This document shows positions 6,105-9,933 of a stretch of 64,000 bases of DNA, one piece after another (position 1 is the stretch's first letter; each line of letters begins with the position of its first letter). The DNA is taken from the NCBI RefSeq assembly GCF_056746865.1, contig NZ_CM163382.1. One strand, given 5' to 3'. A model generated the notes under the pieces. That model was not told the DNA's origin. It was given only the letters and a program-made list of their open reading frames with translations, and ran no database searches. A program made the position numbers and the translations under genes.

Positions 6105-6998
6105 ATGAATGGAAAATTGCAAAGTTCGGATGTAAAAAACGAAACTCCGTACAATATTCCCTTATTGATTAACGAAAATGTGATCTCCAGCGGAATTTCT
6201 CTGATCTCGCTCTGGCATACCTACGCCGACGAGCATTACCGGGTGATCTGGCCGCGGGACAAGAAGAAACCGCTTATCGCCAACTCATGGGTTGCGGTGT
6301 ATACCGTACAAGGATGTGGGAAAATTATTTTAAAGAATGGTGAACAAATAACACTGCATGGCAACTGTATTATATTTTTAAAGCCAATGGATATTCACTC
6401 TTATCACTGTGAAGGTTTAGTCTGGGAACAGTACTGGATGGAATTTACCCCCACCAGTATGATGGATATTCCCGTTGGTCAGCAAAGCGTTATTTATAAT
6501 GGCGAAGTTTATAATCAGGAACTCACCGAAGTTGCTGAATTAATTACTTCACCAGAAGCAATAAAAAATAATCTGGCAGTCGCTTTTCTGACGAAAATTA
6601 TTTATCAGTGGATTTGTCTTATGTACTCAGACGGTAAAAAAGATCCACAACGGCGGCAAATTGAAAAACTAATTGCCACTTTACATGCCAGTCTGCAACA
6701 ACGCTGGAGCGTAGCTGATATGGCTGCCACGATCCCCTGTAGCGAAGCCTGGTTGCGTCGTCTGTTTTTACGCTATACCGGCAAGACGCCGAAAGAATAT
6801 TACCTCAATGCACGTCTGGATCTGGCGCTATCGCTATTAAAGCAACAAGGGAACTCGGTTGGCGAAGTCGCTGATACGCTCAACTTCTTCGACTCCTTTC
6901 ATTTCAGCAAAGCCTTTAAACATAAATTTGGTTATGCGCCGTCAGCTGTGCTGAAGAATACGGACCAGCACCCAACGGATGCCAGTCCACACAATTAA
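6105..6998 (+). CDS. yidL: AraC-family transcriptional regulator
   Basis: C-terminal AraC-type HTH region; start taken at MNGKLQ (297 aa). Confidence 0.75.
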
Positions 6999-8317
6999 CG
7001 TAACTCTGGCCAGTACGCTTTGTTGGCCTCCAGCAACTCATCCAGAATAGCTTTGGCGACCGCGGCGCTCGGTACCGTTTTCGACAACGTAATCGCCTGC
7101 CACAGGTGCTGATATGAACGCTGCTCCCAGGCGTCCACGACCAGTTTTTCCACCGCCACTTGCTGACTCATTAACCCTTTCTGAAACTGCGGGATATCGC
7201 CGACCACCAGTGGTTCTGGTCCGTTGTGCCCGACCAGACACGGGATCTCGACCATCGCTTCATCATCAAAGTTATGGATTGCCCCGTTGTTAGGCACAAT
7301 CAGCAACATCCGCTCCTGAGTGTTGAAGGCAATTGCCGCCGCCAGATCGACGATATATGACGCATGTTCGTCAATTTCCAGCTTGCCCGCCGCTGAATTT
7401 TCTGCCGCCGTAATGGCGCGGCAAGCATCGAAAACCTGTTTCTCGCGATGTTCCATCACCTCATTCGCGCGGGTATGTTCAGGGTTGGAATGCTGAACGA
7501 CATAATCCGGGAAGAGATAATATTTCAGATAGGTGTTTGGTAATGTATCCGGGTCCAGTGCCTGGACATCCCGCGCTTTTGCATAGGTGTCGTTCCAGCT
7601 CGCTTCAGTATGTGTATCTTGCTGCGGTGGAACATAACCGTGCTTAGAGACATATTGCCGCAGCTGGGGCATCAGGTCGTTGCCCTGCAAATCTTCAATT
7701 GATGTCCACCAGCCAAAGTGGTTCAGGCCGTAGTAGCGCACGCGCATCTGTTTGCGATCTTGCAGCCCAACAATTTGCGCCATCCGGCTTTCAATACCGA
7801 TTGGCATGTCACAGATGTTGAGGATTTTCGCATTCGGGCGCAGACGACGCGTGGCTTCTGCGACAATAGCTGCCGGGTTGGAGTAGTTGAGCATCCAGGC
7901 ATTTGGTGAATATTTTTCCATATAATCCACCAGTTCCAGGACGCCGCCAATGGAACGCATGCCGTACGCTATTCCGCCGGGTCCGCAAGTTTCCTGACCA
8001 ACAACGCCGTGGCGCAGCGGGATTTTTTCATCCAGTTCGCGCATCGGGTATTTGCCGACGCGGATGTGCGCCATGACAAAATCAACGTCGCTGAATGCCA
8101 CTTCAGGATCGGTGGTGTAACTAAACGCAATGTCCGGCGCTTTTTCTTTTAGGATGACTTTACAGGCTTCGGCAATCACTTCCTGCCGCGCGCCATCGTT
8201 ATCATAAAATTTCAGTGCACGAAGCGGGAAACGGTCCTGATTCGCCAGGAGCATCAACACGATGCCTGGCGTAAAGGTGCTTCCACCGCCTGCGACAACC
8301 ACTGAGAATTTGGTCAT
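6995..8317 (-). CDS. glvG: 6-phospho-alpha-glucosidase (GH4 family, NAD/Mn-dependent), intact
   Basis: 440 aa, N-terminal [14 protein letters not shown] nucleotide-binding motif, close resemblance to GlvA-type enzymes; full length here. Confidence 0.85.
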
Positions 8318-9933
8318 TATACTGCCTCCGTAATGGCAACATTTTCTGCTGATTGATGAGAATTAATTAAGCTATCGAGCTGTTCACGCAGCTGGGATAC
8401 ATGCAGACCAATGATCACCTGAATGGCATCGCCACTACGGAAGACGCCGTGCGCTCCCAGCTTTTTAAAGACTTCGTCATCCAGCGTTTGTGACATGTCA
8501 TGCAGTGCAATCCGTAGACGCGTCGCGCAATTGTTGATGCTGGAGATATTGCCGACCCCGCCCAGGGCTTGCAGGATACCGGCAGCCTGATCCAGCTCTT
8601 TTTTTGGCTCTGCCGCGGTGGTTTGGCCTCGCGAGGCTTTGTATTCGGCTTTTGAGTAGAGTTTCACTTCCGCATCTTCACGTCCCGGCGTGCACATGTT
8701 GAATTGCAGAATCAGGGTGCGGAAAACCACGAAGTACAGCAGGGTAAAGCACAACCCAATGGCGATTTGGGTCAGCATCATATCCGCGTGGTTGCTGAAC
8801 ATCGGGATCCAGTTTTGCGGTAAAACCTGGTCAATCAAACCACCGCCCATGTTGCCCACCACACCAAAGAGATACATTACGGTCGACATTGAGGCCGCCA
8901 GCACGGCGTGTACCGCAAACAGCAACGGTGAAATGAACAGGAAGGTAAATTCCAGCGGTTCGGTAATTCCCACCAGCATGGCGGTTAAGGTTGCGGGGAT
9001 CAGCAAGCCCGCCACTTTTACCCGATTTTCCGGTGCGGCAGTGAAGTACATCGCTAAAGAAATGCCCACGGCACCAAAGATTTTTGAGTTACCGTGCAGG
9101 GCAAAACCGCCTTCCGGGAACAACGATTTCAGCGGCTCGGCGCTCAAACTGAACTCTTGCAGATGCTGCGCCCAGTACATCTGAATGCCGCCTTCAACAG
9201 CTGCCGGACCAAAGATAAACGGTCCGTAGATGAAGTGGTGTAAACCGGTTGGGATCAGAATACGTTCGAGGAAGGTGTAAACCCACACCCCAAGGGCACC
9301 CGCCGAACGCAGGAACGCTTGCAGAGATTCAATCCCCATTTGTACTTTTGGCCAGCCGAGCAACGTCAGCCAGGCGCAGGGGATCATCACCAGGAAGGCG
9401 ATAATCACCACATAAGATGTCCCCTGGAAAATGCCGAGAAACACCGGCAGTTTTTTATCGAACAGACGGTTATGCAACGCCGTCACAATGCCGGAAATGA
9501 TAATTGCGCCGATAATGCTGGTATCGAGGGTTTTAATTCCCGCCATCATTGTCAGCCCGCTACCTGCCACCGCGTCCTGAGTGAAATCGACGCCGAAGTA
9601 GCTTCCCCAGGTCATTCCCATCGCGTTGATGAAATAGTTCCAGGTCAGGAAACTCACCATCACCGCCAGACAAGCACGCCCCTGCGCTTGCTTCGCAAGG
9701 CCAATGGGTAAACCGACAGCAAAAATCAGCGGCATATTACGGAATACCGTCCAACCGCCCTCTTCAATAATATGTACGATTTGCGCGAATAAACTGTTCG
9801 GATCGGTCAGTGATTCCCCGACAAACATCGGGTTTTGCAGCAAGATGGCAAGACCCACCACAATCCCGGCGAAGGGAAACAGCAGCACTGGCGTGAACAT
9901 CGCGCCGCCAAAGCGTTGAATTTGACTGAGCAT
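8317..9933 (-). CDS. glvC: PTS alpha-glucoside-type EIICB component (fused glvC-glvB)
   Basis: start placed at MLSQIQ (ATG 9931-9933, GAGG upstream); EIIC membrane domain plus C-terminal EIIB with CATRLR motif; 539 aa. Confidence 0.8.

Follow-up and report, generated by a model that had tools for sequence, protein, structure and literature searches.

An uninterrupted yidP/glvCB-glvG locus in Escherichia coli, probably the ancestral form of the decayed K-12 glv genes

Two described systems resemble the glv locus of Escherichia coli. In Bacillus subtilis, GlvA (MalA, PDB 1U8X) and GlvC (MalP) form a two-protein route under the RpiR-type regulator GlvR. In Klebsiella pneumoniae, the counterparts are AglA, an EIICB protein without an EIIA domain, and AglB, whose structure we take to be PDB 6DUX. 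Growth on sucrose isomers, isomaltose and methyl-alpha-glucoside through AglA/AglB was demonstrated by experiment, according to those passages of PMC5309279 that cite Thompson 2001 and Pikis 2006. Heterologous aglA/aglB or glvA/glvC allow growth of K-12 on isomaltose and related sugars with a requirement for crr, the Bacillus GlvA/GlvC pair functions together with the E. coli EIIA-Glc, and the K-12 homologues are regarded as cryptic or truncated (PMC5309279).

The stretch of E. coli DNA analyzed here, hereafter the window (64,000 nucleotides of contig NZ_CM163382.1, assembly GCF_056746865.1), carries a locus of this type, consisting of three adjacent genes:

glvG (aglB-type), 6995..8317, minus strand: uninterrupted 440-aa ATG reading frame, predicted GH4 NAD+/Mn2+-dependent 6-phospho-alpha-glucosidase
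glvCB (aglA-type), 8317..9933, minus strand: single 538-aa PTS EIICB of the Glc family, without an EIIA domain
yidP, 10229..10945, plus strand: 238-aa regulator of the GntR/HutC subfamily (UTRA), divergent from glvCB, assigned from Pfam and synteny

The gene order, EIICB followed by GH4, is that of K. pneumoniae (ATCC 13883, locus L019), whose products are 89% (GlvG) and 81% (GlvCB) identical to those of the window. In contrast, the recovered Bacillus loci (74-75% identity for GlvG, ~61% for GlvCB) share the two-protein chemistry, yet place the hydrolase gene upstream of the EIICB gene with ~870 bp in between, and have no adjacent yidP-type gene. A divergent yidP-type GntR gene is found in the window and in related genera wherever upstream flank is available: an orthologue lies divergently upstream of the EIICB gene in 46/46 gammaproteobacterial loci with enough flank, and all three genes are adjacent in 46 of 48 such loci, the remaining two lacking upstream flank. 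In Citrobacter braakii, Kluyvera and Pseudocitrobacter too, the three-gene module is flanked by yidE and yidL-yidK, indicating that this position is ancestral. The window very probably holds the ancestral, undamaged form of an enterobacterial alpha-glucoside module corresponding to Klebsiella aglA-aglB, with the uptake and cleavage mechanism proposed below, and with the K-12 state as the derived one. Growth on alpha-glucosides is an experimental result for Klebsiella and a prediction for the E. coli copy. The glv genes of the window are already annotated in RefSeq, where the name of glvG is 6-phospho-alpha-glucosidase; they are therefore already known. The locus represents no new kind of system.

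A first-pass annotation of the window had described an intact glv locus with a 440-aa GH4-type reading frame, and this observation is confirmed, the uninterrupted frame spanning both Pfam GH4 domains. Residues 6-415 of GlvG match Glyco_hydro_4 (PF02056, 224 bits) and Glyco_hydro_4C (PF11975, 191 bits). The protein is an end-to-end, high-identity match to solved 6-phospho-alpha-glucosidase structures, aligning without gaps to 6DUX (its residues 4-442 against GlvG 1-439, E 5e-274) and to 1U8X (GlvG residues 3-439, E 2e-225). No NCBIfam model passes for the GH4 protein (best match 181 bits against a cut-off of 486), so that assignment to the AglB/GlvA/MalH type of GH4 enzymes rests on the Pfam and PDB alignments. 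The NAD+-binding glycine motif is present as GGGS at residues 10-13. Predicted metal and catalytic residues C169, D170, H200 and Y263 are all found in conserved contexts, NTYLKYY among these; they correspond to C171, D172, H202 and Y265 of GlvA (1U8X numbering), presumably the Cys/His ligands of Mn2+ and the catalytic Asp and Tyr.

For the transporter, the annotation had given a single 539-aa EIICB with a CATRLR motif. The single reading frame and the motif (residues 469-474) stand, while the length is 538 aa, as the 539 codons include the stop. The frame is part of a longer open one (8317..10194, minus strand), the conserved start being the Met at 9933, which is preceded by GAGGA and gives the same N-terminus in the other genera checked. 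At the other end, the TAA stop shares one base with the glvG ATG (TAATG). Pfam identifies PTS_EIIC and PTS_EIIB domains, and the alpha-glucoside IIBC model TIGR02005 is matched over positions 1-524 of 524 with 959.2 bits against a cut-off of 607.3. Alignment with PtsG spans GLHH, GITEP (GITE at residue 322 of GlvCB) and C(A/I)TRLR, and pairs C469 with the cysteine of the PtsG CITRLR. No EIIA domain was found in GlvCB by Pfam and NCBIfam profile searches, and crr, ptsH and ptsI are located outside the window. The curated 161-position model NF007255 covers only the C-terminal 161 residues, equivalent to K-12 GlvB; this is probably the origin of the name "PTS sugar transporter subunit IIB" that PGAP gives to the complete 538-aa EIICB.

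YidP combines an N-terminal GntR winged helix-turn-helix (PF00392) with a C-terminal UTRA domain (PF07702), the layout of GntR/HutC sugar-phosphate repressors of the YvoA/NagR, DasR and TreR type, and reaches no NCBIfam equivalog cut-off in the profile search. Its nearest solved structures are YvoA (3e-24) and DasR (1e-13), both sugar-phosphate-sensing repressors. Together with the invariable divergent adjacency and the joint absence of yidP and glv from one locus-lacking genome described below, this supports YidP, proposed earlier as the likely regulator, as the candidate regulator of the adjacent operon. Comparison across genera highlights three elements between the two divergent genes:

10083..10108, minus strand: inverted repeat GTCTA-N16-TAGAT (GTCTA-N16-TAGAC in other genera), candidate YidP (HutC-type) operator from the cross-genus footprint
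10047..10062, minus strand: conserved CATGAAAGCGATCACG, candidate CRP site ~60 nt upstream of the transcription start, which is predicted near 9994
10001..10006, minus strand: TATCCT, the E. coli form of a conserved TATnCT, candidate -10 hexamer of the glv promoter from cross-genus conservation

The inverted repeat is present in 20/21 sequences, and its 48-nt distance to the next conserved element does not vary; the half-sites of the GTCTA-N16-TAGAC form match the GTCTA/TAGAC core of dre sites. TGA-N6-TCAC is kept at the candidate CRP site in all 21 sequences, which suggests catabolite control of glv. A simple scan for consensus sigma-70 promoters over 6900-10300 returned none, so that cross-genus conservation is the sole basis of the promoter model. 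At several conserved positions the E. coli region differs from the cross-genus consensus, with TAGAT in place of TAGAC and AAAAGCATG in place of AAAACCATG, and its 5' UTR diverges; these departures could mean weak or silent expression. Relative to the genera with a short intergenic region, the E. coli region carries ~75 extra A/T-rich bases beside yidP along with several substitutions in conserved blocks.

In the mechanism we propose, GlvCB would take up alpha-glucosides and, through Cys469, phosphorylate the glucosyl moiety at O-6. Having no EIIA domain of its own, it would rely on the general PTS proteins and EIIA-Glc (Crr) as phosphate donors. Its substrates are likely to be sucrose isomers (for example palatinose and turanose), isomaltose, maltitol and methyl-alpha-glucoside. 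GlvG, probably translationally coupled to glvCB, would then convert the 6-phospho-alpha-glucoside into glucose-6-phosphate and the aglycone by the GH4 NAD+/Mn2+ redox elimination, and the operon would probably be repressed by the HutC-type YidP until sugar phosphate accumulates. Which substrates are used, the reliance on Crr, regulation by YidP and CRP, and expression itself are inferences from sequence, as is the retention of the catabolic phenotype in the strain carrying the window.

The K-12 locus (glvC-glvB-glvG; b3683, b3682, b4556) lies between yidL and yidP as in the window, is ~98.5% identical at the nucleotide level and has an identical YidP protein. It carries two lesions, which alignment to K-12 maps to the base and which are absent from the window:

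7217..7724, minus strand: 508-bp segment present in the window and deleted in K-12 (K-12 alignment), with 8-bp direct repeats GAACCACT at 7717-7724 and 7209-7216
8827..8829, minus strand: codon 369, CAG (Gln) in the window and TAG in K-12 (alignment)

The description of K-12 glvG as a truncated pseudogene holds: MG1655 annotates an 815-bp pseudogene, in which the 508 bp between the two 8-bp GAACCACT repeats are lost after His200 and the frame is consequently shifted. Likewise, the K-12 PTS component is indeed split (glvC 1107 bp, glvB 486 bp in MG1655). A single C>T change at window position 8829 turns Gln369 into an amber codon, yielding GlvC (368 aa) and GlvB (161 aa). The K-12 state would thus derive from a repeat-mediated deletion in glvG and an amber mutation in glvCB.

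Across 5426 complete E. coli genomes, the locus is present in 4279 and absent from ~1150 (about a fifth). The 508-bp glvG segment is kept in 1652 (~30%) and deleted in ~2600 (about half). The intact locus is therefore real but ordinary, a common polymorphism of E. coli and no peculiarity of the window's strain. We find the amber allele in 348 genomes; the 60 carriers among the matches listed all look K-12-lineage or K-12-derived. In B-type strains of E. coli, represented by DL21, yidP has lost 79 bp. One genome lacking the locus was examined (L003, of ST1193); in it yidL directly adjoins yidE, so glvG, glvCB and yidP are all missing there. glvC has been listed among the genes absent in group B2 (Touchon 2009, PMC2617782). 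The deletion alleles comprise at least two diverged glvG haplotypes, one near-identical to intact PigCaeca_1-type alleles; as the informative positions in glvG are almost all to one side of the junction, a single recombination event would explain this pattern equally well.

All three genes are under purifying selection, with dN/dS of 0.00-0.09 both among E. coli alleles and in comparisons with four other genera. In eight deletion genomes, with the glvG remnant as neutral control, synonymous to nonsynonymous counts were 20/6 for glvCB and 18/5 for yidP, against 8/4 for the remnant. The remnant itself appears constrained, indicating that most of the polymorphism probably predates the deletion or came by recombination.

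There is a negligible probability that an assembly or sequencing error masks K-12-type lesions in these genes. Two independent complete genomes, 118UI and OZ392455, match the 2939-bp stretch at 100% identity, which makes a sequencing artefact very unlikely; at least 80% of the 508-bp segment is found in 1649 genomes, and non-pseudo GH4 and EIICB coding sequences are annotated in all seven intact-type genomes examined. The system might instead be functional with a substrate other than maltose- or sucrose-isomer-type alpha-glucosides, such as the beta-glucoside arbutin, as a legacy annotation tabulated in PMC2617782 ("Arbutin specific PTS permease" for glvC) would have it. We find this very improbable, as the EIICB passes the alpha-glucoside model while scoring 45 bits with the beta-glucoside model and 43 bits with the arbutin/cellobiose/salicin model, and GlvG matches phospho-beta-glucosidases at only ~1e-61, far from its E values with the phospho-alpha-glucosidases.

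A more serious alternative, although still a rather unlikely one, is that in E. coli the intact reading frames belong to a cryptic operon, which, like bgl or asc, would not be transcribed under ordinary conditions and would give an alpha-glucoside phenotype only after an activating mutation. It would agree with the missing consensus promoter, the changes peculiar to E. coli within operator and UTR blocks that are conserved elsewhere, and the loss of glvG or of the whole locus at the frequencies given above, which suggests weak selection in E. coli. The K-12 homologues have been called "cryptic or nonfunctional" (PMC5309279), and the E. coli type strain, whatever its glv genotype, gives negative results with maltitol, methyl-alpha-glucoside, palatinose and turanose (PMC4334874). 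Against silence, dN/dS among E. coli alleles alone is 0.00-0.08 for glvG, glvCB and yidP, which argues that the products are used often enough for selection, and E. coli still has the CRP-like site, the -10-like hexamer and the ribosome-binding site. We also consider that lineages with all three genes intact (the window strain, 042, O157:H7 and certain commensals with small genomes) may possess a functional pathway, under YidP and CRP control, for sucrose isomers, isomaltose and related alpha-glucosides, that the 508-bp deletion could be a recurrent repeat-mediated loss, and that EIICB and YidP may be retained in deletion strains for a hydrolase-independent role. Taken jointly, these three proposals are tentative, with somewhat less than an even chance of holding together. 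Our literature search returned neither expression or growth data on E. coli strains whose glv locus is intact nor a report demonstrating a working glv alpha-glucoside route in this species. If such a route exists, alpha-glucoside use would be a lineage-structured niche trait.

The main value of the comparison is a caution on K-12 as reference, since its glvC, glvB and glvG annotations describe a decayed locus. The three main states in E. coli (intact, 508-bp deletion and absent) may matter for strain-specific metabolic models, and the native genes may serve engineered growth on isomaltose or sucrose isomers. Fermentation of methyl-alpha-glucoside is classically scored as negative in E. coli, which sits awkwardly with the ~30% of its genomes that keep the glvG segment.

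The glv genes of the window occupy a place on the E. coli chromosome around the K-12 3.86-Mb position, with yidJ, yidK and yidL on one side and yidP, yidE and ibpB on the other. Both reading frames are present as the first-pass annotation had described them:

6995..8317, minus strand: glvG, an ORF of 440 aa, with Pfam Glyco_hydro_4 and Glyco_hydro_4C domains
8317..10194, minus strand: long ORF containing glvCB, 538 aa from the Met at 9933, with Pfam PTS_EIIC and PTS_EIIB domains

The start of glvCB is the Met at 9933, just preceded by GAGGA and followed by an N-terminus that is identical in other genera. 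The protein had been given 539 aa, a figure that counted the stop codon. The EIIB motif CATRLR, likewise proposed earlier, is found at residues 469-474, and GITE at 322. The TAA stop of glvCB shares one base with the glvG ATG, and GGAGG lies shortly upstream; this layout indicates that the two genes are translationally coupled.

Alignment of K-12 with the window displays two lesions, one in each gene, so that K-12 is not intact at these sites. In the EIICB gene, codon 369, CAG (Gln) in the window, is TAG in K-12 through a single C>T change at window 8829, and this alone makes the EIICB show as two genes, the split into glvC and glvB noted in the first reading; the remaining 21 differences in glvCB comprise 20 synonymous and 1 missense. 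In glvG, 508 bp (window 7217-7724) are missing from K-12. The 8-bp sequence GAACCACT bounds this segment as a direct repeat, with copies at 7717-7724 and 7209-7216. The out-of-frame loss cuts off GlvG directly past His200, confirming the truncation that the first reading had stated. The MG1655 annotation agrees, listing glvG as an 815-bp pseudogene, glvB with 486 bp and glvC with 1107 bp.

Two 6-phospho-alpha-glucosidases of solved structure align with GlvG residue for residue, 6DUX (E 5e-274) and 1U8X (E 2e-225), the latter a maltose-6'-phosphate glucosidase, while phospho-beta-glucosidases match much more weakly (about 1e-61). GlvG carries the GGGS dinucleotide-binding motif, and its C169, D170, H200 and Y263 are the counterparts of C171, D172, H202 and Y265 of Bacillus GlvA, with roles taken from the GlvA structure. 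RefSeq already names the hydrolase '6-phospho-alpha-glucosidase'. GlvCB passes TIGR02005, the alpha-glucoside-specific IIBC model, with 959 bits at a cut-off of 607, and its alignment with E. coli PtsG spans the GLHH, GITEP and C(A/I)TRLR motifs. PGAP names the whole 538-aa EIICB (window 8320-9933) 'PTS sugar transporter subunit IIB'. This label is probably explained by NF007255, an NCBIfam equivalog of 161 positions that covers only residues 378-538, the K-12 GlvB part; the name thus probably goes back to the pseudogene state of K-12.

Taken by analogy, the module most likely serves alpha-glucoside utilization: GlvCB would import and phosphorylate alpha-glucosides, and GlvG would cleave the products to glucose-6-phosphate and the aglycone, the same chemistry as in the Klebsiella and Bacillus systems. 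Since GlvCB is without an EIIA domain, its domain content implies that it must rely on a separate EIIA; Klebsiella AglA and Bacillus GlvC need E. coli crr (PMC5309279). The Klebsiella and Bacillus genes let K-12 grow on isomaltose, sucrose isomers, panose and methyl-alpha-glucoside (PMC5309279). The operon might instead be cryptic in E. coli, which we consider rather unlikely. The searched literature gave no growth data for an intact-locus E. coli. Maltitol, methyl-alpha-glucoside, palatinose and turanose all give negative results with the type strain (PMC4334874), which may or may not have the intact locus. The earlier observation is confirmed, and its interpretation, that the strain may retain PTS-dependent alpha-glucoside catabolism, is supported.

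The states of the locus were compared across 5426 complete E. coli genomes, using a query of 2939 bp.

Table. States of the glv locus in 5426 complete E. coli genomes
2939-bp query matched: 4279
508-bp segment present: 1652 (1649 at at least 80% coverage)
508-bp deletion: about 2600 (4267 - 1649)
glv genes absent: about 1150
K-12 amber allele: 348

Given the segment in 1652 genomes alongside the other states, the intact glv locus is one state of a common polymorphism. The allele is common and already annotated, and systems of its kind are well understood. Holders of the segment include O157:H7 and the B-type strain DL21; in strain 042 the whole locus matches. A 41-mer centred on the amber finds the 348 genomes only, and all 60 listed appear K-12-lineage or K-12-derived (MG1655, BW25113, DH5alpha, DH1, J53, HB101, MC4100, O16:H48 and others). 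In the single locus-lacking genome examined, of ST1193, yidL adjoins yidE, and glvG, glvCB and yidP are jointly missing; glvC is among the genes reported missing from phylogroup B2 (Touchon et al. 2009, PMC2617782).

EIICB and yidP are ordinary coding sequences in all seven non-K-12 deletion genomes examined (loci L083 and L087-L092). Polymorphism counts in these and K-12 fit both continued selection on EIICB and YidP and inherited diversity, and do not separate the two, because the glvG remnant, the neutral control, likewise shows mostly synonymous variation. Three of these eight remnants carry a CAG>TAG stop past the deletion junction. At least two diverged haplotypes of glvG carry the deletion, a pattern that either recurrent repeat-mediated deletion or recombination could produce.

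Two further variants were seen. In four genomes (PigCaeca_1, PKF8, A10 and E1624; L093-L096), an IS200/IS605 tnpA/tnpB element replaces yidI, yidJ, yidK and most of yidL, and yidP, glvCB and glvG remain intact. DL21 (L085) has intact glvG and glvCB but lacks 79 bp of yidP, equivalent to window 10408-10486, and this yidP is annotated as frameshifted; the operon could be naturally derepressed in this strain.

When the window genes are compared with other E. coli alleles, dN/dS is 0.05-0.08 for glvG and 0.00-0.02 for both glvCB and yidP; against Klebsiella, Raoultella and Kluyvera it is 0.035-0.046 for glvG and 0.08-0.09 for glvCB. Citrobacter braakii, Kluyvera and Pseudocitrobacter share the window order yidE-yidP-glvCB-glvG-yidL-yidK. 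The intact arrangement is therefore the ancestral one, from which the state of K-12 and that of locus-lacking genomes are derived. In a genome scan, 79 loci yielded the hydrolase. Each of the 46 gammaproteobacterial loci with sufficient upstream flank has a YidP orthologue (41-82% identical) that divergently adjoins the EIICB gene; these loci span Enterobacteriaceae, Serratia, Rahnella, Proteus, Pectobacterium, Brenneria, Aeromonas and Vibrio. In the rest of the 79 (Firmicutes, Leptotrichia, Tolumonas and others), no divergently adjoining orthologue was found; a distant yidP copy lies downstream in one Tolumonas locus. In three loci of Kluyvera and Superficieibacter (L007, L008 and L027), the first module is followed downstream by a second, tandem copy that has a second GH4 gene and a yidP-like gene (56-61% identity), and in L027 also a second EIICB gene.

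YidP combines GntR and UTRA domains (Pfam), and its closest solved structures are YvoA and DasR, repressors that sense sugar phosphates. In an alignment of 21 yidP-glvCB intergenic sequences, drawn from about 15 genera, conserved islands stand out amid otherwise diverged DNA:

10083-10108: inverted repeat GTCTA-N16-TAGAC, TAGAT in the E. coli form
10047-10062: CATGAAAGCGATCACG, with TGA-N6-TCAC in 21 of 21 sequences
10001-10006: TATnCT block

We read the inverted repeat as a candidate YidP operator; its half-sites correspond to GTCTA/TAGAC, the core of the dre sites of DasR and NagR. The block CATGAAAGCGATCACG, at an invariant spacing of 48 nt downstream of the repeat, can be read as a candidate CRP site, whose centre would lie about 60 nt upstream of the predicted transcription start near 9994. 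The TATnCT block would be a candidate -10 hexamer of a weak, activator-dependent promoter; a consensus sigma-70 scan of window 6900-10300 found no promoter.

The window differs from K-12 elsewhere as well. The 8.2 kb at 43754-51984 have no megablast match to K-12 region 3897424-3906866 (cbrB, cbrC, yieK, yieL, bglH, bglB, bglF and bglG), and hold an IS1 transposase ORF (46288-46791), two ORFs with weak pentapeptide-repeat matches and an 839-aa ORF with no Pfam match. At 53577-53584, the alignment is without about 85 bp found in K-12 between pstB and pstA (K-12 3908466-3908551). Between pstS and glmS, about 6.1 kb (56657-62796) are inserted relative to K-12, forming a chaperone-usher fimbrial operon whose products are a 190-aa fimbrial subunit, a 243-aa PapD-type chaperone, an 840-aa usher and a 356-aa fimbrial protein.
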